Below, in pieces: positions 1,917-17,918 of a DNA stretch of 64,000 nt. The notes under the pieces were generated by a model. It searched no databases. It was not told the origin of the DNA and saw nothing but the letters and a program-made list of their open reading frames with translations. The translations under genes were made by a program, and so were the position numbers. Every line of letters begins with the position of its first letter. Position 1 is the first letter of the stretch. Origin of the DNA: Synechococcus sp. UW140 (GTDB taxonomy: Bacteria > Cyanobacteriota > Cyanobacteriia > PCC-6307 > Cyanobiaceae); assembly GCA_943369455.1 (NCBI GenBank), contig CALRND020000007.1, forward strand, positions 115,388 to 179,387. Reading direction: 5' to 3'.

Positions 1917-2789
1917 TCAGATAACGGTTGCCATATAGCTAGAGGGAGAAAGCCGGCATGATTCCGAGAAGGCGCCAGAAAGGGTGAAAAGCCGAGGCTT
2001 AATGTTGAATCCAAACAAACGGTAGAGATAATAGCGAGATGTTTCTGACTCCGACACTGCAAGCTCGTTTCTGGATACGAAGAACGGAGTTTCTCGCCCA
2101 TATTTTGTTGTTTTTACTTCAATAAGTCTATCGGCGCCAGTCTCCTCATACGAGAGAATGTCAAAGCCGGCCCCGTCGCCTCGCGTTTGCGATGTGTGCT
2201 CGACTTTCTCGGCTAGCCTTTCTTTGCCAAGGTTGATCAGCCTTGCTCGCTCAAAGTTCAAGACAAAGAGCTCACCAGCATTACCAAGCGAGCGATTACG
2301 CGCTTCTCTCTCCAAGTAGTTGACTGAGATACATGCCCGAGTCGCCTGAAGGCTTCCTCTACTAGGTTCCTTGTCTCGGGGCTGCATGGCTGGAGGTGTG
2401 GTGAGCACTCCCAAAATATCTTCAACTTCCGGCACCACGATCGGCCTGTCAGCGTCTGCGGCCGCGACATTCAGGAGCTGGCTATCAGATACAAGTCTCT
2501 CGGAAACAACGTCATGCAGCAGGCCTTGATAATTGGATCGAGGCTTGTAACCAGTAATATAAGGGAATCCTAGGTCAATCAGTACAGCACTGATATTCGC
2601 ATGCTTGAACTCAACGGACTGCTCCGAACGACCTGAGAGGCGCTTAATCAGCGCGCGCCGGTGAGCTGCTTTATTGTAAGGAACCCCGGAGAGTTCAGCA
2701 GCAAGCATGGCAAAGTAGTCTGCCACGGTTGCTGCGACTTCCTCTCTTGACCAGTCAGTAGCCATTTCTCGAGGCGCGTTGGATACCAT
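1917..2789 (-). CDS. DUF3883-type (NO VEIN C-terminal, restriction-endonuclease-like fold) protein
   Basis: 290-aa ORF in visibly AT-richer DNA. C-terminal GDGAGFDILSYEETGADRLIEVKTTKYGRETPFFVSRNELAVSE..YYLYRLF matches the DUF3883 signature as I remember it. The N-terminal EFKHANISAVLIDLGFPYITGYKP domain is common in HNH/DUF3883 proteins. Confidence 0.7.
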   Translation of the reverse strand: MVSNAPREMATDWSREEVAATVADYFAMLAAELSGVPYNKAAHRRALIKRLSGRSEQSVEFKHANISAVLIDLGFPYITGYKPRSNYQGLLHDVVSERLVSDSQLLNVAAADADRPIVVPEVEDILGVLTTPPAMQPRDKEPSRGSLQATRACISVNYLEREARNRSLGNAGELFVLNFERARLINLGKERLAEKVEHTSQTRGDGAGFDILSYEETGADRLIEVKTTKYGRETPFFVSRNELAVSESETSRYYLYRLFGFNIKPRLFTLSGAFSESCRLSPSSYMATVI

Positions 2790-2844: not shown

Positions 2845-3120
2845 TTGGCCCTGGTTATGGGAGCACCTAGGAACCATCACCGCGAAGCAGGCTGTGCGTT
2901 CTGCGCGCAGGAGGGCAGCGGCCGGGTGCTGCTAGAGAAGGAGCTGGCGCTGTGCATCTCCGACGCCTATCCCGTGAGCGAGGGGCACAGCCTGGTGATC
3001 CCACGGCTGCATCAATCTGCCAGGCCGTACAGCTCAATACGCCGACGTGGTGAAGGTGACGTCAGCATGGTTGGCCAAAGGGGTGGAACGGATGCTCTTG
3101 TCCGTTCCACCGGTGGATGA
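2845..3120 (+). pseudogene. HIT-domain N-terminal fragment, copy 3 (homology about 2872-3010, then unrelated read-through)
   Basis: HHREAGCAFCAQEGSGRVLLEKELALCISDAYPVSEGHSLVIPRLH. No histidine triad follows. Retains a 39-nt segment (ELALCISDAYPVS) that copies 1 and 2 lack. Confidence 0.6.
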
Positions 3121-3910: not shown

Positions 3911-6900
3911 TCACTTATGGAGTTCAATATCAAAACAAACTGTCTCCCCAACACCCTTCGAAAAACTTTCATGATTAAACTTCCTTGGCTCAACATACCA
4001 TACTTCTGAAACACGGGTTGCTGCGGCAAGAGCTGCAAAGGCAACGGCATGAATCTTAGATCCCGTGAGGCCAACTTCAACATTGGCTCCACTTCGAAAG
4101 TAAAGATCACAATAGATCTTCTCGATTTCTTCCAGTGTCTTTTTAAGATCGTTTGATCCTACTTGAATCAAACCAACATTAGCTTCGGCAGCACTTGCCG
4201 CGAGTTCAGCGGCAAACCAAGCTATGCGGCGGCGAGGCGAATCCTTGGGAGGAACAAGTATGCGAGTTGCGTCACTTGACCGAGCATCTAGCAGATGTAA
4301 CAGCCTATCATTCTTAGGAGATGCTGAAGCAATAAGCGCACGCCATCGCTCTGGACTTGCAGCACTTGAATGAACGCTGAAGTGTCTGTAAGGCCCAACC
4401 TCGCCAGTCAATATGTCATCAAGTGAAGCGAGTACATCATTTGATAATAAATTTCCCTCGAGGACCCCCCGATCAACGAGCTCTTGGTTACTTGGAAAGT
4501 ACTCCATTGCAGAGGTATGGACAACTCCAACACGCCGAGTGCTGACAAGGGCATTCATAATCGAGACGAAGATATATGGCTTTGAAAGTCCAGAGGTGTC
4601 TACAATTATAGACTCGCCCTTGATATTGGCCTGAACATCATCGACGCTACCGACAACTATCAGTTCAAGGTTTAAGCTTGATACATACTTTAGAATATCT
4701 GCGCCCTGATTAGTGTCATACTGCAAGAGAATTACCCTTTTAGGAGTAACTGTAGCCAAAAGTCTCTCCGCCGAAGCCTTGGCTCTCTCTTCGAAGCCAA
4801 GAGCCAAAAGCACAGTATCGACATCACGCCCTGCCCATGATTCGAGCACTCCATGGTTGATACTAATTCCAAGAGATGGCACGCATAAACCATCCGCAAT
4901 CAACACGCTTGAGCTAAGATCATTAACTTTTTCGATTATACTTAGTTGCCTGGTTTGGACACGGTTTACTGATTTCGAGATCTTAGTATTCTTGCCATTT
5001 TGCTTTACTAAAGCAGGCTTAGACACCTCTCCTTCCTTAGAACTGTTTGCATTGGCGTCTGATACACTTCCAGAATTAGTCGCCCGACGCGCCTCACTTT
5101 CAATTAATATATTCTTGGCATTCTCTGGATGCTCTAACCACTCTCTGAGCGTGTTTCCAGACAACTCGAATCGATCACGGTCAGAAAGCCCTATAAAGCT
5201 AGCAAGTCCCAGGGTCTTTCTATAAGAAAGCTTGAACTGTAGGACAGGATCATCGTCACGTGTCTTGGTTCTTGGCACTCCACCATCGTAAACAAAGACA
5301 CCAGTATCAAGAAGGTCAAGAATCATACGATATATCTTATCAAAGTCATGCCCAGCATCAACGCGCACGTACAACTTCGTGTATTGTCGCAGTCGCACTT
5401 GGTTTGCAGATAGTTTTAGTAGCTCACCAGCCGCTTGCGCAAAAGCTAGAGCTAGCCCCTTTTTGTGCTGATCACGCCTATTCAGATTATGCAATAAGTG
5501 TGCTGAATGCTCAAGAAAACAGTCAGTTTGTCTCTCATCAGAAACGGGGAGACTGCAACTGTCTCCATCGACTTGCTGAAGAATCTTTTCATAGAGCCTT
5601 AGAACATCGCCGATATCGCCTACGCAGACTGCTTGCAATGCCCGTAGCCCTCTATAGACACGTTTGCGCTCTCTTGAGGTAGCAGAAGAATTGGCAATTT
5701 CTCTGGCAATTACTTCTAGTTCTACGTCACCAAGAACTTCTCTTGGCTCAGCCTTATAAAGGGGATTGCGCCCACTTAGTTTTTGGCCCTTTCTCCGGAG
5801 AATCTCCTCTACAAACTTCATCTTCTGTTGAGTTGAACTCTTCCTCAGAAGACCATAGACTTCGTTTCCGAGATCGAATTCTTCGTAATCACGGTTAGGG
5901 TCAGCAGGGGCTTCGCCACCAGGGGACAGGAGAACACGGTGAAGCGCCTGTGCTTCAGTCGTAATGCGAAAGGCGCAATGGGCATGCTGAAAAAGGAGCT
6001 TTGAAATGACTTCCCGGACAGTATCCTCACTTAGATATCTAGTTGAGACATCATCCAATAGATAAAGAATGTACTTTTGATTGAAAGCCGGTGCCGCTGC
6101 CCTCAACACATCCGCAAGATAACTAAACGCATCTGCGGGCGCCATCTTTAGCCTATAATCCGAGGTTTCATCGGCAAGCTGGAACTGAAGGTCAATCAGA
6201 AAATCGTCAAACGCATGCTCGCCCGAACCTGGAATTCTCTCGAGCGGAATATCTAGTGGCTTCAGTGCATCTCTTAAAAGCATATCAATGCTATCCAATA
6301 AGCCGCCTGATTCTATGGAGCGTAAATGTCGGAGAACCTGTATGCCGTCGCGAAGGTATGCAACATACAGCCTCTCGAAAGGCGCACTGATAGTCGATGC
6401 ATTATCTTGTGGATTGAGTAACTTTTGGCAGGACGAATAAATACCAATAAAATCGTCACTCTTATATCCTGCGGTCATATCATCCGGCGTTGTGGCACGT
6501 GCATGAAAATGCAAGGCACGCAAAAGAATCGTTTTACCACAGCCTCGCATTCCTGTTATTACTTGAGGGCCACGGCCTGACGTCTTTGCCATCCACCTAC
6601 CCTCAGGGTCGAACCATAGGTCAGGCACATGCCAAGACTCAAGAGTTTGAGCGTTATAGCCATCTCCAAATCGTTGCAATTGAAGTGGTACACGCCAAGG
6701 TTCATCGGCTGCATTAACCGCTGCTTCAATAGCAGCTCGTGCTTCATCGCGTGTCATCATTCGCTGTGAACCCGCAGGAGGAGCAAGATGCTCAGCAAGC
6801 CCGCGCAGAGCACTCGCCAATCGATAATCAATATCACTAGAATCTTGGAGCGCCTTGGCAAGAGAAAATAGGTGCTTAGCGATTTGATGCTGGTCACCAA

Positions 6901-7576
6901 GACGATTGGAATCGGAATCGCTTTTACTTGCATCAAGAACTGAACCTAGATCAATCGCCACCGCACGCGTAGTTTCATCAATAGCACTTGATCTATAGGA
7001 TTCTCTCGCAAGACTTTCGATTAGGATATTGCCATCATGAAGATCATTATGGAAGCTTTTGTTCTCGGTAAAATAGTGGAAGATCTCAAATAGGTCGGCT
7101 CCAATCTGAGCCGCCATGCGTGATGTAAGCTTTCGTACTCCGCCTTGCCCTTTAATGAGCTGACCTAATGTAGGGCCTTCTACATTTTTAAGCACCGCGA
7201 CGTGGCATCGAAGTACTGAGTCCCCAAAAGAAACATCTGAATCAAATTTGTCTGTTATGTCAGCTACTAATGTCGAGCCCTCTCCAAGTCTTGCATGCTC
7301 TCTGCACTCTTCATTCCAATCCTTCGCGAAGTATTCGTAGACTTGAGTTGGAACAACTTTGAGGACAACTACTCTGCCAAGCGCCAACTGCTCGGCTCGG
7401 TATACAACACTGTAGAAGCCGCGTGAAACTGCATGCTTTATCTTGTAATTCTCAATCTGACTAGGTTTGTCATGCAATGGCAGCTCATAGGGGCGACCGC
7501 AGGAAGGACAACATTCATTGGGCGTTCTTTCAGAGTAATCCTGAGAAGGACACCAAAAGCAACATAGACTAGGCAT
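3911..7576 (-). CDS. Large multidomain protein: CxxC..CxxC zinc ribbon + protein-kinase-like domain + P-loop NTPase + C-terminal tandem Rossmann-like module
   Basis: Start taken at ATG 7576 (MPSLCCFWCP), which overlaps the upstream stop. Motifs: CCFWCP..CCPSCG (7499-7564); VVLKV Lys; HNDLHDGN catalytic loop (7028-7051); DLG (6944-6952); Walker A GMRGCGKT (6530-6553); Walker B ILYLLDD (6050-6070). Confidence 0.85.
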   Translation of the reverse strand: MPSLCCFWCPSQDYSERTPNECCPSCGRPYELPLHDKPSQIENYKIKHAVSRGFYSVVYRAEQLALGRVVVLKVVPTQVYEYFAKDWNEECREHARLGEGSTLVADITDKFDSDVSFGDSVLRCHVAVLKNVEGPTLGQLIKGQGGVRKLTSRMAAQIGADLFEIFHYFTENKSFHNDLHDGNILIESLARESYRSSAIDETTRAVAIDLGSVLDASKSDSDSNRLGDQHQIAKHLFSLAKALQDSSDIDYRLASALRGLAEHLAPPAGSQRMMTRDEARAAIEAAVNAADEPWRVPLQLQRFGDGYNAQTLESWHVPDLWFDPEGRWMAKTSGRGPQVITGMRGCGKTILLRALHFHARATTPDDMTAGYKSDDFIGIYSSCQKLLNPQDNASTISAPFERLYVAYLRDGIQVLRHLRSIESGGLLDSIDMLLRDALKPLDIPLERIPGSGEHAFDDFLIDLQFQLADETSDYRLKMAPADAFSYLADVLRAAAPAFNQKYILYLLDDVSTRYLSEDTVREVISKLLFQHAHCAFRITTEAQALHRVLLSPGGEAPADPNRDYEEFDLGNEVYGLLRKSSTQQKMKFVEEILRRKGQKLSGRNPLYKAEPREVLGDVELEVIAREIANSSATSRERKRVYRGLRALQAVCVGDIGDVLRLYEKILQQVDGDSCSLPVSDERQTDCFLEHSAHLLHNLNRRDQHKKGLALAFAQAAGELLKLSANQVRLRQYTKLYVRVDAGHDFDKIYRMILDLLDTGVFVYDGGVPRTKTRDDDPVLQFKLSYRKTLGLASFIGLSDRDRFELSGNTLREWLEHPENAKNILIESEARRATNSGSVSDANANSSKEGEVSKPALVKQNGKNTKISKSVNRVQTRQLSIIEKVNDLSSSVLIADGLCVPSLGISINHGVLESWAGRDVDTVLLALGFEERAKASAERLLATVTPKRVILLQYDTNQGADILKYVSSLNLELIVVGSVDDVQANIKGESIIVDTSGLSKPYIFVSIMNALVSTRRVGVVHTSAMEYFPSNQELVDRGVLEGNLLSNDVLASLDDILTGEVGPYRHFSVHSSAASPERWRALIASASPKNDRLLHLLDARSSDATRILVPPKDSPRRRIAWFAAELAASAAEANVGLIQVGSNDLKKTLEEIEKIYCDLYFRSGANVEVGLTGSKIHAVAFAALAAATRVSEVWYVEPRKFNHESFSKGVGETVCFDIELHK

Positions 7577-8822
7577 TAATGACCTCCATTTGTTGGTCCA
7601 AATCAACGGATACCAAGATACTACTAGAATTATCTGCAAGCGTGCTGAAGGCTGATTTAACTCTAGAGATCACATCAACAATGTCAAGGCACGTATCGCA
7701 GCGCAGAGTTGCAATTGGTTGATCTGCAACTACAGCCTCTCCAGGCATGACGAGAAGTTTTACTCCTGCAGGGTCTTTGAAACAATTATGGCCGTCCACA
7801 GTCTGCATAGATACAAGAACATCGCGTAAGCGGGCCAGATTAATCTGAAAGAAACCCGAAGACTCGGCTTTCAAGGTAAAGCGTGGGGCAGAGAGAATCT
7901 GTTTAGTGCGGTCAATAAATACATGGATTGACGTACCTTGAGCTATAAGGTGACTTTCAAATACTCTACGTGCATCGCAAATCATATTTGGAGATAGGCG
8001 CTCTTGTTCATGACGTTCGAGATCGGGACTGTCAGACATGCAAGCTGCCATACAATAGCAATCAATGGAATGATTTTCAAGCCAGATCTCGTCATCATCA
8101 TAAGGCAATAGATTTAACACTTTAGCGAGTGCAACAAGGCTTTCACCACGGCCGATCCATGGCTGTAAAGGAGCCATTTTCACGCCGAGGAACGCAACTG
8201 CAGAAATGCCAAGCAGACGAGCCGCCTCACAAAACATCGTGGCATTCTTTCGTGCCTCCGCTCTTGATTTGCCGAAGTTACCGTGGGAACCTATTCTAAT
8301 ATCTAAACCCACACATTTAACACCTACAGCGAGCTTTTTTGCCAGTAAGCTTGCTGCAGCAAGAACTGGAATTGCCACAGCATCATGTCTACGTCGACAC
8401 ATAAATAGAGACGCATCAAGTGGTGCAAAGCGGCTATCAGCGAGAAAATGAGCGTACCCGCAGTCTTCTATTACCTTGTGTACTTCATCAGAGGCCAACT
8501 GGACCTTGTATCCCTCAAGTGTGCCGAGACTGTCAATCGCACCTGCCGGTCTGCCAGGGACAGCTAGTTTTGCAACTTGAAATCCCATGACTCTCAGCCA
8601 CAGTGGACCCAACAAAGTCGAAAGCGAAGCTGGTCCACCTGTAGATGCGATGTCTGCAACGTTGTAGTGATCACCCCATTGTAGTTTCTCTCCGCTTGCT
8701 GCCAAGTGCTTCGCTAGACGTGCAACTTCAAATGCATCTAACGGGCAGTTGCGTGCCACTTCAATCAACTTTAAGAACTGTTCTTCATCACATTTAGTAG
8801 GTAGCGGAAGAAAGCTTGTCAT
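7569..8822 (-). CDS. Divergent thymidine phosphorylase / glycosyltransferase family 3 (PRT-like) protein
   Basis: 417 aa. DIASTGGPAS (8634-8654) corresponds to the DKHSTGGVGD loop and VPGRPAGAIDSLGTLEGY to SGRGLGHTGGTLDKLE of E. coli DeoA. C-terminal LLVMPGEAVVADQPIATL resembles the PYNP C-terminal domain. Confidence 0.75.
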   Translation of the reverse strand: MTSFLPLPTKCDEEQFLKLIEVARNCPLDAFEVARLAKHLAASGEKLQWGDHYNVADIASTGGPASLSTLLGPLWLRVMGFQVAKLAVPGRPAGAIDSLGTLEGYKVQLASDEVHKVIEDCGYAHFLADSRFAPLDASLFMCRRRHDAVAIPVLAAASLLAKKLAVGVKCVGLDIRIGSHGNFGKSRAEARKNATMFCEAARLLGISAVAFLGVKMAPLQPWIGRGESLVALAKVLNLLPYDDDEIWLENHSIDCYCMAACMSDSPDLERHEQERLSPNMICDARRVFESHLIAQGTSIHVFIDRTKQILSAPRFTLKAESSGFFQINLARLRDVLVSMQTVDGHNCFKDPAGVKLLVMPGEAVVADQPIATLRCDTCLDIVDVISRVKSAFSTLADNSSSILVSVDLDQQMEVINA

Positions 8823-8834
8823 GCTGGTAGTGTT

Positions 8835-9917
8835 TTAATCATTACTTGCAAGCCACGAGTCTACGTCTACTGCTATCTCCTCCTGAAATGATTTCCGAAT
8901 CTCAGCGGCATGAGCCATGATAAATGGGGGAGGAAGAGCATTGCCAATCATTAATGCTATAGCAGTCTTGTTGTTTACAGTAGGGAAGATGTAACCCTTA
9001 GGGAATCCCTGAAGTAAAGATGCTTCCCGCATAGTGACTGCCCGGTTCTGGTCGGGATGCAAGAAACGACCCTTAGAAGGATTGAAGCAGCCACTTGTAA
9101 TTGTAGGAGCCTGTGATCCCCACGACATTCGGCCATATATATCATAGAACCCATCACATCTCCGATGGCATTCAAGTTGTTCATCTTTTGAGAGACTAGA
9201 GCGGCTTCCACCATCATGTGGAATGCGGCCAATCAGATCAAGGATCCTCTTGCTTCGTCGTTCTGGAATGTCATGCACGGGATCACCGCTTGCGCCGGGA
9301 GTAGGCAGCATCCCAATAGCGTCCCGTACTGTATACTTTTGAGGGGAAGGTGGTGCAAATCGAATACTCTTCCCCAATCCAGCAATATAGATTAGCCTAT
9401 GGCGACGTTGCGGAACTCCATAGTCAGCTGCATTCAGAACCCTGTGATGCCCATGGTACCCAAATCGCTTCATCGATCTACAGAATTGCGAAAAGCGATG
9501 ATCATTTTGAAGGCCGGGAACATTCTCAAGCATCACCGCCCTAGGACGCAGCTCCTTTGCAAATCTCAGGAATTCGAAGAGAAGGTCGTTGCGTGCATCA
9601 TCTACGCATAGAGGACGATTTAATGCTCTCAGTTTTGAGAATCCTTGGCATGGCGGACACCCAGCCAATAGGTCGAGTTTTCCTTTTCGTAGTCCAATTT
9701 GCTTCTTAAGGCTACTAACCCCAAGCTTCTTGATGTCTGTGTGAAAAACTCTTACATCTGAGTGATTAGCGCTATATGTTTCTACTGAAGATTCATCAAC
9801 TTCAACAGCAGCAAGAACGCGAAATCCTGCTTGCTTCAGCCCCAATGTCAACCCCCCGCAACCGCTGAAAAGGTCGACCGCAGCAAAGTGGTTGTCAATG
9901 GCTGCCTGATCCTGCAT
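8835..9917 (-). CDS. DNA (cytosine-5)-methyltransferase
   Basis: Motif I FSGCGG (9852-9869), motif IV PPCQGFS (9636-9656), ENVPGL, QRRHRLIYIAG, GNALPPPF. Start set at ATG 9917 (GGAGG 13 nt upstream), 15 aa before motif I. The ORF is open up to TTG 10055. Confidence 0.9.
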   Translation of the reverse strand: MQDQAAIDNHFAAVDLFSGCGGLTLGLKQAGFRVLAAVEVDESSVETYSANHSDVRVFHTDIKKLGVSSLKKQIGLRKGKLDLLAGCPPCQGFSKLRALNRPLCVDDARNDLLFEFLRFAKELRPRAVMLENVPGLQNDHRFSQFCRSMKRFGYHGHHRVLNAADYGVPQRRHRLIYIAGLGKSIRFAPPSPQKYTVRDAIGMLPTPGASGDPVHDIPERRSKRILDLIGRIPHDGGSRSSLSKDEQLECHRRCDGFYDIYGRMSWGSQAPTITSGCFNPSKGRFLHPDQNRAVTMREASLLQGFPKGYIFPTVNNKTAIALMIGNALPPPFIMAHAAEIRKSFQEEIAVDVDSWLASND

Positions 9918-10260
9918 CCTTGAAGTGGTTCCTCCGTTGCCACTATACGCTCTGATCTTTGATTTTTGTCTGATCTGTCTGCATTCATCTCGCGACTGCT
10001 TGCAGGGACACAACATGCCTACGCAATCCCTTCCTTCGCCATTTGCGAAAAGCAAACCCTTAAGCAGCCGTCAGCCATTATCCAAGCCCACGATCTCGTC
10101 GTGCACATGGAGCCGACCCGCAACAGTCAAAACAAACCCTTCTGGCATGTCTGGGAGTAAGGGTCTGAATCAATACAACTTGAGTAATTGATGCCTTGAT
10201 CAGACTCAGAAATATCTGAATGGGTTTAGCCTCTATGGCAATACCAGCAAGATTAAGCAA

Positions 10261-12847
10261 GCTCCGCCCAGCGGATCGACCTGCTCTGCGCCTTCATCAA
10301 GTTCAGCGGCCTGCGCCTGCTCCAGCCGGCCCTCAGCGAGTTCCTGCAGGCCGAGCCCCGCCGCCCGTTGCGGGTGCTCACCACCGTCTACCTGGGCGCC
10401 ACCGACCGCCGCGCCCTCGATTGGCTGGTGGCTCACGGCGCCAAGGTGCGCGTCAGCTACGACACCCGCCGCACCCGCCTGCACGCCAAAGCCTGGCTGT
10501 TCCATCGGCCGGGCCTCTCGGGCGCCACCCTTTCCTCCACCGCCTACATCGGCTCCTCCAACCTCTCCACCGCCGCCCTGCACGACGGCCTGGAGTGGAA
10601 CGTGCGCCTCTCCGCCCACGACAACGAGGGCATCCTGGCCAAGTTCCAGGCCGCCTTTGAGAGCTACTGGGAGGAGGGCGAGTTCGAGCCCTACCGGGCC
10701 AGCGAACTGGAGCAGCGCCGCTTTGATCGGGCCGTGCGCGAGGAGTCGGCGGGGGACGCGGCGTTGGACGCCACCCCGCTCAGCTTCTTCGACATCCGCC
10801 CCTACCCCTACCAGCAGGAGATCCTCGACAAGCTGTCGGCCGAGCGCAGCCTCCATGGCCGCTGGCGCAACCTGGTGGTGGCCGCCACCGGCACGGGCAA
10901 AACCGTGGTCGCCGCCCTCGATTACGCCCGCCAGGCCGGTCCTGGTCACCCGAGCCTGCTGTTCGTGGCCCACCGGCGCGAGATCCTGCAGCAGAGCCTC
11001 GCCACCTTCCGCCAGGTGCTGCGCGATGGCTCCTTCGGCGAGCTGCTGGTGGATGGCCAGCGCCCCAGCCAGTGGCGCCACGTGTTCGCCTCGGTGCAGT
11101 CGCTCGCTGGGCTGGATCCGGCCGACCTGGCGCCAGACACGTTCGCCGTGGTGATCGTCGATGAGTTCCACCACGCCGCCGCCGCCAGGCCTCACCGCCA
11201 CCCCCGAGCGCACCGGCGGCGAGGACATCCTCCATTGGTTCGATGGCCGCATCGCAGCCGAGCTGCGCCTCTGGAGCGCCTTGGAGCAGGGCCTGCTCTG
11301 CCCCTTCCACTACTTCGGCCTCCACGACGGCACCGACCTCTCGCAGATCGAGTGGCGCCGCAACGCCTACGCCACAGAAGCCCTGTCCAACCTCTACACC
11401 GCCGACGACGCCCGCCTGCGCCTGATCCTGCGCGAACTGGCAGACAAGGTCACCAACCTGGATTCGATGCGGGCCCTGGGCTTCTGCGTGAGCGTGGAGC
11501 ACGCCCATTGGATGGCCCGCAAGTTCGTGGCCGCCGGCCTGCGCGCCGCTGCCCTAGATGCGTCCAGCCCCCGGGACGAGCGCGCCGAGCAGATCCGCCG
11601 CCTGCGCTCCGGCGAGCTGCAGATCCTGTCTGCGGTGGATCTGTTCAACGAAGGCCTCGACATCCCTGAGATCGACACGGTGCTGTTCCTGCGGCCCACC
11701 GAGAGCGCAATCGTGTTCCTGCACCAGCTTCGACCTGCGCTACCGCGCCCTGCTCGGTGGCACGCGCGACCAGCTGGAGCAGCAGATCAACGACGGGTTT
11801 CCCTTCCTGCCGGCCGGCTGCAGCCTGCAGCTCGATCGGGTGTCGAGCGAGCGGGTGCTTGCCAATCTGCGCGAGTCGCTGCCCACGCGCCGGCCCCAGC
11901 TGCTCGCCGAAGCTCACCGCCTCGGGCGCTGTTCGCTGGCGGGGTTGCTGGAGGGGCTCGGGATGGAGCTGGGGGAGTTTTACAAGGTGGCGGGGTCGTG
12001 GGCGTTGTTGCAGCGGGAGTTGGGGTGGGTGGCCTCGGTGGAACCCTCCGAGGATGAGTGGCGACTGGGACGGGGGATCGCCGGGGGGCTGCTGCATCTG
12101 GACGACCCCGAGCGGTTGCACTGGCTGGCGGGCCAACTGCAGCGGCCCATCGCGCCCGATCCGGCGGACTTCGATCCCGCCACCGAGCGCCGCTGGCGCA
12201 TGCTGATGGCCCAGCTCTGGGGCAGCGGCCGGCAGCACGTGCCCCTGGCCGAGGCCCTCGTCCGGCTCTGGGCCGCCGCCGACCTCCGCGCCGAACTGGT
12301 GGAGCTGTTCGCGCTGCTGCTCGAGCGCACCGACCACCTGGTGGCGCCGCTCGACTGGGACCGCGCCGATCCGCCCCCCATCCCCCTCAAACTCCACGGC
12401 CGCTACTCCCGCGCCGAGGTGTTCGCCGCGTTTGGGCTGCTGAACGAGGCCCGCCCTTTCCCCGGCCGGGAGGGGGTGTTCTTTGACGAAGCCACCCAGT
12501 GCGACGTCTTCTTCATCACCCTCAAGAAGTCCGAGCGCCTGTTCTCCCCCACCACCCGCTACAACGATGTCGCCATCTCCCCATGGGAGTTCCACTGGGA
12601 GAGCCAGAGCCTCACCCGGGAAGCGTCCGCCACCGGGCAGAGATACATCCACCACGTTGAGCGCGGCAGCCGGGTGATGCTGTTCGTGCGGGAGGAAAGC
12701 AAGCGCGGCGGGGTGACGCTGCCGTTTCTGGGCCTGGGGTTCGCGGATTACGTGAGCCATGAGGGCGAGCGGCCGATGGCGATTCGCTGGCGGTTGCACA
12801 GGGCGATACCGGCGGCGTTTGTGCCGGAGTTGGCGTTGGCGGTTTGA
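10261..12847 (+). pseudogene. PLD-nuclease / SF2 helicase / DUF3427 protein, 5'-truncated with two internal frame-breaking deletions
   Basis: RLHAKAWLF..GSSNLS (PLD HxK), VVAATGTGKT, VDEFHH, then a frame change to GLTATPERTGGEDILHWFDGRI. ..LFLRPTESAIVFLHQL, then a second frame change to FDLRYRALLGG..DUF3427-like C-terminus ending LALAV. The reading frame is open right up to the island edge, with no start codon. Confidence 0.75.
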
Positions 12848-12861
12848 GGGCGTGGAGCTGA

Positions 12862-13302
12862 TCAAGCCTTATCCCATTGGCCTTCTGGTTCCTGCAGGCG
12901 CCTCATGGCCTCCCTGGCAAGAACAATCGCAATCCCTTGAAAGTTGCCCAAGGCCAAGAGGTCGTCATCGCCAGAGACGATCAGATCGGCGAGGCCACCT
13001 ACGGCCGCAGCCAAGACCTGATCGTCGTCGGGATCCCTACTGACGGGACCTCCCAGATCAGCAGGTTCCACGAGCTCAACCAGGGCGGCATAGCCATCAA
13101 ACAGATCGGCAATCCTCACACCAAGCCGAAAAATGGGCTCTCTGAACTTCGGTCGCTGCAGCACGCCTTCCAACTCGGCGAGGAGAGGAACGGTACTGAT
13201 CAGCTGAACCCGCCCAACCACGGCCGCATCCATGAGCTGCCCGGGAACTCCCTGCCAGATCAGGGCAGAGAGAGCCGTGTTGGTGTCAAGAACCAGCCGC
13301 AA
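12862..13302 (-). CDS. PIN-domain toxin
   Basis: 146 aa. MRLVLDTNTALSALIW..DPDDDQVLAAAVGGLADLIVSGDDDLL. Overlaps the upstream antitoxin ORF by 17 nt. Confidence 0.75.
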   Translation of the reverse strand: MRLVLDTNTALSALIWQGVPGQLMDAAVVGRVQLISTVPLLAELEGVLQRPKFREPIFRLGVRIADLFDGYAALVELVEPADLGGPVSRDPDDDQVLAAAVGGLADLIVSGDDDLLALGNFQGIAIVLAREAMRRLQEPEGQWDKA

Positions 13303-13570
13303 GTCGTTGCCCCTTGCGGTAAGCGCTGATCTCCTCGTTGATCTCTCGCCGGGTCAGAACCTCTGGCGGGTCAGCAGCAAGAGCAGCCCTGGCGTCTTGC
13401 AGACGGACAATGCGGTCTGAGGCCAGCTTGTCCCGCAGCAGGCGCTCGATCGCTTCTGGCGCCAGCAGGCCGGCTCCGCTGGCTTCCGCCGCCAGCGCAT
13501 CAGGGAGGGTGATCTCGATGGTGGTCAAGCGTGCACCCCAACCATGCTTGCCTCTGAGGGTAGCCGGCAT
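13286..13570 (-). CDS. Antitoxin partner of the PIN toxin (start uncertain: ATG 13570 or TTG 13528)
   Basis: ..LTTIEITLPDALAAEASGAGLLAPEAIERLLRDKL..EINEEISAYRKGQ. Small, overlaps the toxin start. The N-terminal part of the 152-aa ORF is antisense to helicase copy B. Confidence 0.55.
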   Translation of the reverse strand: MPATLRGKHGWGARLTTIEITLPDALAAEASGAGLLAPEAIERLLRDKLASDRIVRLQDARAALAADPPEVLTRREINEEISAYRKGQRLAAGS

Positions 13571-13595
13571 CTCCGCCCAGAGGTACAGCCCACAG

Positions 13596-14201
13596 GCCAC
13601 GCCGCGAGCAGATCCGCCGCCTGCAGGCCAGCACCTGCCCCTGGCCGAGGCCCTCGTCGGGCTCTGGGCCGCTGCCGACCTCCGCGCCGAGCTGGTGGGC
13701 CCGCTTGACTGGGGCCGCGCCGATCCGCCCCCCATCCCCCTCAAACTTCACGGCCGCTACTCCCGCGCCGAGGTGTTCGCCGCCTTTGGGCTGTTGAACG
13801 AGGCCCGCCCCTTCCCCGGCCGGGAGGGCGTGTTTTTTGATGAGGCCACCCAGTGCGACGTCTTCTTCATCACCCTCAAGAAGTCGGAGCGACTGTTCTC
13901 CCCCACCACCCGCTACAACGACGTCGCCATCTCCCCGTGGGAGTTCCACTGGGAGAGCCAGAGCCTCACCCGCGAAGCGTCCACCACTGGGCAGCGATAC
14001 ATCCACCACCGAGAGCGCGGCAGCCGGGTGATGCTGTTCGTGCGGGAGGAGAACAGGCGTGGTGGGGTGACGCTGCCATTTCTGTGTCTGGGGTTCGCGG
14101 ATTACGTCAGCCACGAGGGCGAGCGGCCGATGGCGATTCGCTGGCGGTTGCACCGGGCGATTCCGGCGGCGTTCGTGCCGGAGTTGGCGTTGGCGGTTTG
14201 A
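13596..14201 (+). pseudogene. Second copy (B) of the helicase 3' end (DUF3427 region), internally deleted
   Basis: About 40 mismatches over about 560 hand-aligned nt versus 12232-12847, plus a 45-nt gap (ELFALLLERTDHLVA missing). At 13596-13625 a short EQIRRL-coding piece (compare 11585-11605) is fused directly to the QH(V/L)PLAEAL region. Confidence 0.7.
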
Positions 14202-15523: not shown

Positions 15524-17299
15524 TCAGGACGAACAGCTGTAGTGGGACACCCCTCCGGCGTTGAAGAATTCCAGGGGCTTCAGACGGTCATAGGTCGCCA
15601 CCAGCTCCGCAGGCAGCGCTTTGTAGGGATGGCGGAACACCTCCTGCAGCTCCCTGACCAGGCCGTAGTCACCCTGCGCCGCCTGTGCATAGGCCGGGGC
15701 GATCAGCCATTCGCGCCAGGTGATGGCGGGATTGACGCGCTTCATCGCTGCCGATGTCTCGCGGGGGTCGCCGGAGTCGGTGACCTGATGCCGCCAGCGT
15801 TGCAGCCAGCTCGTCCATTGCCCTTCGAGCTCCTCTGAGCAGGGCAGGTAGAAGCTCTCCTGCAGGGCCGAAACCTGCTCGGGGATATCCGAAAGCCTGC
15901 GGAAGAAGATCGTGACGTCCGCCTTGGAGGCCACCATCAGCTGCAGCAGGTCCTGCACCAGCTCGGCGTCGTAGCGGATCAGGCCGAGCTTGCGGGCCCA
16001 CATCGCGTCGAGCGCCTGGCCCATCGCTTCGGCGAAGCCGTCGTGGATCTCATCAAGCCTGGCCAGGGCCTTTGGATTGCCCTCGAGAAGGGGCCGCAGA
16101 GCGGCCCAGAACATCTGGTAGTTGGCTTCGGCGGCCACCGGCTGGTTGAAGAAGGAGAAATGCTGCCCGCCGCCGGTCCAGGGCTGGAAGCGGGGGTCGA
16201 ACAGTTCGCAGAAGCCGAAGGGGCCGTAGTCGAGGGTGTAACCACCGGCGGCGCAATTGTCGCTGTTGAAATTGCCCTGGCAGTAGCCCACCCGCATCCA
16301 GTGCGCCACCAGAGACGTGAGCCGGCCGCGGAACAACCCCGCCAGCTCCACCACCTGATCAACGAAGTCCAGGGCCGGATCAATCTCCTGGCGGTAGTTG
16401 CGCTCGATCAGGTGCGCCACGATCATCCGCAGTTCGTTCAGCGCCTCCGGATGGGCACCGCTGCGTGCGCGTCGGGCGAACAGCTCCAGCTGGCCCACCC
16501 GCAGGAAGGACGGGGCCACCCGTGTGCTGATCGCCGCCGGGTTGTCCACCAGGATGTCGGGATCGAACGAGCGGGAGTTCGGCGCATACCAGGGCCGGCG
16601 CACCGTTTCCGATCCAGACACATAGAGCGTCAGCGAGCGGGAGGTGGGCACCCCCAGGGCGTGCATGAACTCCTGCGCCAGAAACTCGCGCACGCTGGAG
16701 CGCAGCACGGCGCGGCCATCGGCGCCGCGGCAGTAGGGCGTGGGGCCGCCGCCCTTGAGCTGCATCTCCCAGCGCCGGCCATTGAAGACGCCTTCGAACA
16801 CGGACATGGCCCGGCCGTCGCCGTAACCGTTGCCGGTGCCGAACGGGCACTGCTGGATGTATTCGCTGCCGTAGATCGAGAGGGCATACCCAGTGGCCCA
16901 GCCATAGGGCCGCATCGGCGCCTGCGCCGCCGTGATGTCACCGGAGAACAGTCGGCGGAAGTGCTCGTCGTGGGCGAGCTCATCGCCCAGGCCCAGCTCC
17001 TGGAAAAGGGTTTGGCTGAGCGCCACCAGCTCCGGCGCCGGCAGCGGGGTGGGCGTCACCGGCACGTAATGCCCGGAGAACACCTGGCGGGGCCGGTGAT
17101 CCTGGCCATCAGCGGTGGCCTGGGGATCCGGCCGTAGGGCATCCAGCAGCGAATAATTCGCCTTTTGGGCAAACCCCGCGAACGTTGTCGTCAGTTCTGC
17201 AGTCGGCACGGTGGTGGACGCTGCTGTGGGCACGGCGGTCGTCACGGGTCTCTCGGGTGTGGCGCGGCCCGGGCAGGGCCCTGACGCTGGGGTCCCCAT
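15524..17299 (-). CDS. selO: Protein adenylyltransferase SelO (YdiU/UPF0061)
   Basis: [64 protein letters not shown]. Start set at ATG 17299, because the longer ORF overlaps the Uma2 gene with Trp/Cys/Arg-rich text. Confidence 0.85.
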
Positions 17300-17336
17300 C
17301 CTGGCGAGCTGAGCCCGTACAGCGCCTGATCCCAGA

Positions 17337-17918
17337 TCAACCGTCCCAGATCTCCGCCAGCTCCAGCCGCAGGCCCGGCAGCTCCGGCTCCCCGTCCAGC
17401 ACCGCCAGCCCCTCCAGCCGCTGCGGTTCGCCGCTGGCGCTCCACACCTCCACACCGCGGCTTTCGGGCAGCAGCAGCCAGCCCAGCCTGGCCCCATTCG
17501 CCTGGTAGGTGTCCATCTTGCGTCGCAGATCCGGCAGCCGGTCCGATGGGCTCGCGAGCTCCACCACCAGATCGGGGCAGAGGGGCGGAAAGCCCTGGCG
17601 ATCGGCGCTGGAAAGGGCCTGCCAGCGATCCAGCCGCACGGCGCTGGCATCCGGACTCAGCACGGAGCCATCAGGCAGCAGGAAACCTGTGGAACTGTCG
17701 AACACGCACCAGCCGGGCTGGAGGCGGGCCCACAGACCCAGCTGCACAGCCAGCTGGTTGTTCCGCCGTCCGGTTTCGCCACCTGCAGGGGTCATCTCGA
17801 TCAACCGCCCGTCCGCCGCCAGCTCCAGCACCGCCTCCGGATTCGCCGCACAGAGATCGGCAAACTGGGCCGGAGTAAGCCGCAGCGCTGCGCTCAGTTG
17901 GCGGGGCAGGGTGAGCAT
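17337..17918 (-). CDS. Uma2 (DUF820) family endonuclease
   Basis: [54 protein letters not shown] is typical of the cyanobacterial Uma2 family. Confidence 0.8.

Follow-up and report, generated by a model that had tools for sequence, protein, structure and literature searches.

A putative ligand-gated kinase of Synechococcus sp. UW140 in a cassette with a C5 methyltransferase and a thymidine-phosphorylase-like protein

The stretch of Synechococcus sp. UW140 DNA considered here (64,000 nucleotides of contig CALRND020000007.1, positions 115,388 to 179,387; hereafter the window) encodes on its reverse strand, at 3911..7576(-), a protein of 1221 residues plus stop that joins a zinc ribbon, a Ser/Thr kinase, an ORC/Cdc6-like AAA+ ATPase, a helical region that may include a winged helix-turn-helix (wHTH), a linker and a tandem CARF module. 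What might such a protein, with no recognisable nuclease, do for its host? The original prediction, made from the sequence alone, took it for a stand-alone giant protein in which a nucleotide-dependent switch drives phosphorylation of a target. Our best reading is that the gene specifies the signalling component of a three-gene cassette that moves horizontally, namely a C5 cytosine DNA methyltransferase, a thymidine-phosphorylase-like protein (TPL) and the zinc-ribbon/kinase/AAA+/tandem-CARF protein. That the latter is a ligand-gated, ATP-dependent signalling kinase in a CRISPR-independent defence cassette linked to 5-methylcytosine (m5C) we consider somewhat better than an even bet (about 0.55), with each specific step less probable than the whole; our statements below on which ligand binds, what the kinase phosphorylates and what TPL does are inferences.

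Domains of the kinase protein

The conserved module of about 300 residues at the C-terminus is probably a tandem CARF ligand sensor. In an AlphaFold2 (AF2) model of residues 905-1221 (predicted local distance difference test score, pLDDT, 91.5; predicted template-modelling score, pTM, 0.92), it folds into two Rossmann-like alpha/beta units, and Foldseek ranked Can1 (6sce) first among solved folds (E=1.7e-7, TMq, the template-modelling score for the query, 0.52), then Csm6 and Cam1, with probability 1.0. The fold search was needed to identify the module because a hidden Markov model (HMM) profile of it, run against PDB sequences, gave chance matches only; sequence identity to Can1, Csm6 and Cam1 is 10-20%. 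These three nearest folds belong to nucleases or membrane proteins found beside Cas10 systems, unlike the present protein. Can1 is a nuclease that cyclic tetra-adenylate (cA4) switches on and has two CARF domains in one chain, likewise two units as here.

Unit 1 (residues ~921-1021; 4514..4816(-); AF2, Foldseek and PADLOC) carries GFEER after strand 1 and DTSGLSKP after strand 4, and the PADLOC model CARF6--CARF_CARF_CARF matches residues 917-1021; unit 2 (residues ~1064-1218; 3923..4387(-); AF2 and Foldseek) carries the motifs SxKxxRL (SPKNDR) and EVGLTGSK. A hallmark of CARF domains is a pair of conserved loops following strands 1 and 4, of the [DE]-x-[ST]-G-x-x-K type, and in both units a loop of the [DE]-x-x-G-L-[ST]-x-K type lies past the fourth strand (DTSGLSK, EVGLTGSK), about 100% conserved. 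Among 186 non-identical full-length relatives of the kinase protein, the sample behind all conservation figures given here, G927, E929, D993 and K999 of unit 1 are about 100% conserved, and R1091, G1172 and K1174 of unit 2 are 100% conserved. With a probable CARF module in the protein, a small molecule is very likely an input to the switch. The idea of a nucleotide-dependent switch that drives phosphorylation is still the most plausible logic for the protein; what it had missed was the tandem CARF module, and hence this probable input.

At the other end of the protein, a zinc ribbon (residues 5-27; 7496..7564(-)) of the form CCFWCP...CCPSCG is supported by cysteine conservation and by alignment to PknG. 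The cysteines of CCFWCP..CCPSC, C5 to C26, lie at 7499-7564; C6, C23 and C26 are kept in all sequences that cover the region, and C9 is His or Asp in 22 of the 186. The Hanks-type protein kinase that follows (residues ~37-292; 6701..7468(-)) is assigned from AF2/Foldseek, HMM matches and invariant catalytic residues: K73 in VVLKV, the catalytic loop HNDLHDGN (H176-N183, 7028-7051) and DLG (D209-G211, 6944-6952), with K73, E90, H176, D178, N183 and D209 all 100% conserved. Its activation loop is short, with S212 invariant and S219 near-invariant. The AF2 model of residues 1-300 (pLDDT 84.7) found PknB, PKR, CaMK1D, Chk2, Nek7 and Aurora as its nearest neighbours in Foldseek (E~1e-9, TM scores 0.5-0.55), StkP, PknB and PknA, all bacterial Hanks kinases, match the family profile at E~3e-6, the PD-T4-6 models of PADLOC match the kinase region at E=5e-11, and many homologues carry a precomputed PF00069 match. 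The family profile also aligns residues 11-187 to PknG, beginning N-terminal to the PknG kinase core, in a segment that holds the rubredoxin-type zinc module of PknG, which would parallel the ribbon of the window protein.

Because the profile matches and the AF2/Foldseek neighbours are Hanks kinases, we assign the fold of a protein kinase; its catalytic set is complete, and the core looks catalytically competent, all of its catalytic residues being invariant. This supports the apparently active, eukaryotic-like kinase that the original prediction had described. A pseudokinase was rejected, the catalytic residues being 100% conserved, and a small-molecule kinase of the APH/ChoK type, considered for the HxDLHxxN form of the loop, was rejected as first choice, the neighbours in both sequence and fold being Hanks protein kinases. 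Residues 37-290 are best matched, in sequence and fold, by bacterial Hanks kinases (PknB, StkP and PknG), with which we group Stk2 and PD-T4-6 as kinases of defence. Unlike these, the window kinase has an HNDLHxGN loop without Lys, a much shorter activation segment and C-lobe, and no PASTA, FHA or transmembrane (TM) segment; among these Hanks-type comparators, only the family to which the window protein belongs, CARF_STK_AAA, joins its kinase to AAA+ and CARF.

The ORC/Cdc6-like AAA+ core (residues 306-571; 5864..6661(-)) is a match to Pfam PF24389, ORC-CDC6-like (E=3.7e-27; score 95.7 bits, cut-off 27), over model positions 5-283 of 571. Walker A, GMRGCGKT (G342-T349, 6530-6553), has an Arg within the P-loop, and Walker B is ILYLLDD (I503-D509, 6050-6070); G342, R344, K348, T349, D508 and D509 are 100% conserved. 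Such a P-loop arginine is among the traits given for the CARF_STK_AAA ATPase (PMC4012209). The NTPase had been called ORC/STAND-like; the first half of that name is borne out by the Pfam match and the intact Walker motifs, and the second found nothing to support it, with no NACHT, NB-ARC or repeat match among Pfam matches considered at E up to 0.1. The helical region that follows (residues 572-850; 5027..5863(-)), delimited by alignment, is highly conserved, with a basic motif GGxPRTKTRDxxPxxQFKL and an invariant R769; Pfam and PDB-sequence profile scans of residues 560-850 gave no match, and the region is possibly the AAA+ lid plus a winged helix. Between it and the CARF module lies a Ser/Asn/Lys-rich linker (residues 851-915; 4832..5026(-)), with many indels and no column conservation across 20 homologues.

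The reading frame, open from its first TTG over 3911..7639(-), has an ATG at 7576 that gives the 1221 residues. We place the start there because homologues begin, like the window protein, at MPSLCCF, and because the stop of the upstream gene reaches 8 nt into the kinase gene, an overlap that 21 other loci share. In all, the open reading frame (ORF), each motif previously listed for it, the variable linker and the conserved C-terminal module were found where they had been placed, the catalytic and Walker residues proved 100% conserved, a pattern beyond chance, and Pfam, PADLOC and NCBIfam scans of the 1221-residue protein detected no nuclease domain.

The TPL gene, the C5 methyltransferase and their surroundings

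The kinase gene does not stand alone, as it had been supposed to; it is part of a conserved cassette. In the window the order is C5 methyltransferase, TPL, kinase gene, co-directional and with the kinase gene last. The methyltransferase (8835..9917(-); 360 residues counted from M47 of its ORF; Pfam DNA_methylase, E=2e-60) has complete catalytic motifs (FSGCGG, PPCQ, ENV, QRRxR and GNALPP), and TPL (7569..8822(-)) is a protein of 417 residues, divergent and thymidine/pyrimidine-nucleoside phosphorylase-like by NCBIfam and by a match of its family profile to pyrimidine-nucleoside phosphorylase (PyNP). Neighbourhoods were counted in 80 genome loci from >10 phyla. In 68 of these a C5 methylase is encoded no more than 10 kb from the kinase gene, and in about 54-58 TPL stands directly upstream of that gene. 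Three more distant TPL homologues, sampled independently, are each directly upstream of an ORC-CDC6-like gene of 1220-1230 residues, and the TPL subfamily was found nowhere but beside this kinase gene. Pairwise identities of the kinase correlate with those of TPL (Spearman 0.60) and with those of the methylase (Spearman 0.55).

TPL is homologous to the NP-II enzyme PyNP along nearly its whole length. NCBIfam PRK05820 matches it at E=9e-29 with 100 bits, well under the equivalog cut-off of 269, and the TPL family profile matches PyNP 1brw at E=1.7e-41 over residues 16-392. The STGG loop is kept, and the residues R168/S183/K187 of PyNP, its base-binding triad, correspond to the invariant R143/S158/K162 of TPL. 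K81, H82, S110 and T120, residues of the PyNP phosphate site, have become Ile, Ala, Ala and Ala/Gly in TPL, which also differs from PyNP in having GRPAG in place of GHTGG, in missing the first ~30 residues and in having gained several invariant arginines.

In some loci that lack TPL, other genes adjoin the kinase gene. In two Pedobacter loci (L054 and L055) a putAbiC membrane protein occupies the slot upstream of it, and in five others (L051, L052, L079, L082 and L084) a protein of 165-190 residues with a C-terminal TM helix adjoins it, together with NaeI endonuclease and its C5 methylase. These putAbiC or small TM-helix proteins beside the kinase gene hint at a partner slot for exchangeable effectors.

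The cassette lies in a segment of 45-54% GC inside DNA of about 65-75% GC, and across the loci its usual surroundings are restriction-modification (R-M), BREX or abortive-infection (Abi) islands. Recurrent neighbours are Vsr (27 loci), HATPase_c_3 proteins, AIPR, DUF4420, UvrD-PD-(D/E)xK helicase-nucleases, NaeI, the BREX genes PglX/PglZ/BrxL and integrases. All neighbour clusters present in at least 3 of the 80 loci were annotated, except a cluster of 127-residue ORFs and a fragment of the kinase gene. A promoter and terminator scan gave nothing over the shuffled expectation.

Some loci depart from this picture in ways worth recording. In L086 and L087 an HhH-GPD DNA glycosylase gene (6080-6835) stands beside the methylase position and replaces Vsr; its product is perhaps a T:G mismatch glycosylase that accompanies the m5C methylase. 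For the TPL-kinase pair of L088 and L089 (12926-17182) there is no methylase inside 8 kb; the pair adjoins a 993-residue protein with HATPase_c_3, HEF_HK and HATPase_c domains and a Response_reg_2 protein; the 991-residue HATPase_c_3-type family of these two loci also occurs in L033, L041, L057 and L069. The kinase gene itself is broken into an N-terminal fragment and a remainder in L051, L067 and L068, with a Mu-type transposase between the pieces in L068; these are disrupted copies.

In the window, the cassette is not the only low-GC gene. At 1917-2789(-) lies a low-GC gene of 290 residues that matches the candidate defence gene PDC-S36 (PADLOC, E=5e-111) and has a NOV_C restriction-endonuclease-like domain. 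We rejected it as part of the system, since only the window and L046 have it next to the kinase gene (in L046 directly downstream), and it is probably an independent neighbouring defence gene. Three segments, 1-264, 1330-1593 and 2873-3007, are 87-92% identical copies of one segment that overlaps a weak HIT-domain ORF (2845-3120), and they bracket the low-GC inserts; the layout resembles an insertion hotspot used again and again, the ends of its target gene duplicated. The nearer flanking ORFs at 178-894, 901-1605, 10233-11081 and 11645-12865 have no Pfam match, and outside the island follow a PIN-domain ORF (12862-13302(-)), a DUF3427 fragment (13338-14201(+)) and a SelO protein adenylyltransferase (15524-17650(-)). 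The insert, with the PDC-S36/NOV_C gene and the PIN-domain ORF near it, and the wide scatter of the family count in favour of a defence role.

A known family and its nearest analogues

By an end-to-end HMM match, the window protein is a member of the CARF_STK_AAA family: the PADLOC model PDLC01925, 'CARF6--CARF_STK_AAA', aligns with residues 1-1218 over model positions 1-1185/1187 at 1137.6 bits. The kinase-AAA+-CARF architecture was described computationally, as a 'small family', by Makarova et al. (2014, Front Genet 5:102; PMC4012209), who treat it as a signal-transduction fusion, propose a role for CARF in a kinase-mediated signal pathway and do not mention CRISPR linkage for the family. 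The two descriptions share the zinc ribbon, the Ser/Thr(/Tyr) kinase and the AAA+ with its P-loop Arg, then CARF. They differ at the end, where the published text has 'CARF and wHTH', in ambiguous order, whereas the modelled C-terminus of the window protein consists of two Rossmann-like units without wHTH. The linkage to TPL and a C5 methylase, present around the window gene, is absent from that text. We found no published mention of this linkage elsewhere; the CARF census of Makarova et al. (2020), presumably the origin of the CARF6 name, was outside the coverage of the search. The literature likewise yielded nothing relevant on CARF-kinase experiments or on thymidine-phosphorylase-like defence genes. 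The original prediction had allowed that the architecture might turn out to be a catalogued family with a housekeeping role: catalogued it is (PMC4012209, PADLOC), with no known housekeeping role. What is new here, in the sense that we could not find it described, is the thymidine-phosphorylase-like partner together with the C5-methylase linkage, in a family whose architecture was already known and which is experimentally untouched. Taken as a whole, that prediction is partly supported; neither the sensor at the C-terminus, nor the cassette, nor the earlier publication of the architecture figured in it.

The family is patchy and scattered over >10 phyla, with >655 homologues of the kinase protein, >120 of them full-length (1210-1260 residues). 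A tblastn search of phage genomes gave no match, and one of plasmids gave a single match, on a Loktanella plasmid (NZ_CP072995.1, locus L084), where RefSeq labels the homologue 'hypothetical protein'. When the tandem CARF was searched against 1.84 billion representatives, the top 150 were all CARF_STK_AAA proteins or fragments, with no other architecture among them and no evidence of kinase domain swapping.

The nearest characterised functional analogue is PglW of the BREX type 2/Pgl system of Streptomyces. An analysis of 2026 (PMC12839542) describes PglW as composed of NERD, a pseudokinase, an active S/T/Y kinase, three wHTH and an inactive ORC/Cdc6-like domain, and proposes it as the 'sensory hub' of its system, which is methylase-linked and has no classical restriction enzyme. 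PglW shares with the window protein a large multidomain kinase, an ORC/Cdc6-like domain and a methyltransferase-linked system; unlike the window protein, with its intact ATPase and tandem CARF, it has a NERD nuclease and a pseudokinase, carries an inactive ORC-like domain at the C-terminus and lacks CARF. The earlier statement that neither PglW nor Stk2 has the architecture at hand was therefore overstated, PglW being a kinase with wHTH and an inactive ORC/Cdc6-like ATPase. The partners of PglW are PglX (an N6 methylase), PglY and PglZ, while those of the window protein are a C5 methylase and TPL. By HMM, the window protein is not a PglW homologue: the PglW model is absent among its 20 PADLOC matches, in a scan down to E=0.1.

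For the gating of an AAA+ module by CARF, the best analogue we see is RtcR, composed of CARF, AAA+ and HTH (PMC4012209), whose CARF also binds the partner proteins RtcA and RtcB (PMC9650030). Like the window protein, RtcR couples a CARF sensor to an AAA+ oligomerisation module outside CRISPR. It differs in having an NtrC-type rather than an ORC/Cdc6 AAA+, sigma-54 transcription as its output, and a single divergent CARF at the N-terminus.

A proposed mechanism and its alternatives

Let us suppose that the two CARF units pair as a pseudo-dimer in a single chain and that a nucleotide-type ligand, arising on infection or DNA damage, binds to them. Ligand binding might then free the ORC-like AAA+ module for ATP binding and oligomerisation, comparable to the gating of AAA+ by CARF in RtcR, and the kinase domains gathered in the oligomer would trans-autophosphorylate on their short activation loop, perhaps at S212 and S219. 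Hanks kinases and PKR are activated in such a manner, by bringing kinase domains together so that they trans-autophosphorylate. The active kinase would phosphorylate the co-translated TPL and/or host proteins, and the outcome might be growth arrest or an altered pyrimidine nucleotide pool that blocks phage replication. The methylase would mark self DNA, tying the module to an m5C-based discrimination between self and non-self.

A more specific scenario, to which we give tentative credence well short of an even chance, is that the tandem CARF senses a pyrimidine nucleoside or nucleotide signal made, removed or presented by TPL and that the kinase transduces it, the three genes forming a self-contained, CRISPR-independent immune trio. 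Such a signal might come from the breakdown of host DNA that carries m5C marks, or from some other metabolite of the thymine type.

A number of observations weigh against the ligand-gated kinase in an m5C-linked cassette, or against parts of it. On the sensor, an hhalign comparison of unit 1 with unit 2 gave a probability of 0.1, that is, no sequence similarity, which leaves unit 2 CARF-like by structure and motif only, and the Foldseek output came without per-domain ranges for the two units; no source of a ligand for CARF is encoded nearby. On the kinase, Pfam Pkinase scores 16.8 bits, below its cut-off of 31.7, and aligns only from the N-lobe to the catalytic loop; the loop HNDLHxGN has His in place of the Lys of HRDLKxxN; the C-lobe is short, with three helices in the AF2 model; and residues 214-224 of the activation loop are poorly modelled (pLDDT <50). 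The substrate class of the kinase is uncertain for these four reasons. On the partners, about a quarter of the loci are without TPL and about 10% without a nearby methylase, several of the methylase-less loci being truncated contigs. Four of the six canonical phosphate-site residues of PyNP are lost in TPL, which on this evidence may be no phosphorylase at all. There is also no sign in the kinase protein of a reading of DNA methylation, and a literature search found no experimental work on any CARF_STK_AAA member.

Could the protein instead be a controller or guard of an adjacent R-M system, a second layer that senses loss of methylation or anti-restriction, through depletion of S-adenosylmethionine (SAM) or inhibition of the methylase, and answers by phosphorylation? 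We think this unlikely, since many loci, the window included, have the methylase and no recognisable restriction enzyme, and no methylation- or SAM-sensing element was identified.

The fold of the CARF module, nearest to that of Can1, Csm6 and Cam1, which are activated by cyclic oligoadenylates, and the PADLOC model name that places the protein among CARF families would both fit an ancillary effector of type III CRISPR-Cas, with the CARF activated in trans by cyclic oligoadenylates that Cas10 makes and the kinase as the effector. However, among the neighbour clusters present in at least 3 of the 80 loci, all but two of them annotated, none resembles Cas10 or a cyclase, the 64-kb window shows no CRISPR-like array, the steady partners are instead the C5 methylase and TPL, and PMC4012209 is silent on CRISPR linkage for the family; we consider this scenario improbable.

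A slim chance goes to the notion that the cassette is not immune at all and serves as a housekeeping or repair accessory of m5C methylation, in which TPL processes thymine, uracil or 5-methylcytosine nucleosides, or deals with the T:G damage that arises from m5C deamination, and the kinase regulates the methylase or repair. The retained pyrimidine-binding Arg/Ser/Lys triad of TPL is consistent with it, as are the presence of Vsr in 27 of the 80 loci and of an HhH-GPD glycosylase by the methylase in L086/L087, although Vsr normally accompanies any Dcm-type methylase. Against it stand the patchy, horizontally transferred distribution, the low-GC insert and the integrases, BREX, Abi and restriction genes found as neighbours, and a ligand-gated kinase-ATPase of 1221 residues seems excessive for salvage.

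Finally, a self-contained, single-protein defence kinase like Stk2 or PD-T4-6, with the ORC/STAND-like NTPase as its sole switch and neither sensor nor partner, would agree with the PD-T4-6 match at E=5e-11, the intact Walker motifs and the quarter or so of loci without TPL, but is hard to reconcile with the conserved tandem CARF and its invariant pocket motifs, the translational coupling of a TPL whose subfamily was found only beside the kinase gene and the methylase linked in 68 of the 80 loci, and we hold it to be quite improbable.

Returning to the ligand-gated kinase as signalling subunit of the cassette, we see the value of this study in the cassette and its mechanism, since the architecture of the protein is not new. 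CARF domains are known chiefly for receiving the cyclic oligoadenylates that Cas10 makes, with nucleases as the customary output. If the sensing of pyrimidines linked to TPL were true, it would add a new input route to CARF and a kinase as its output, and would make TPL the first enzyme of the NP-II family in prokaryotic immunity. The identity of the ligand and the substrate would tell whether CARF signalling runs outside CRISPR with a different messenger and whether the executing step of this cassette is phosphorylation or pyrimidine metabolism, and would bear on how methylase-linked systems free of nucleases, such as BREX and Pgl, stop phage.

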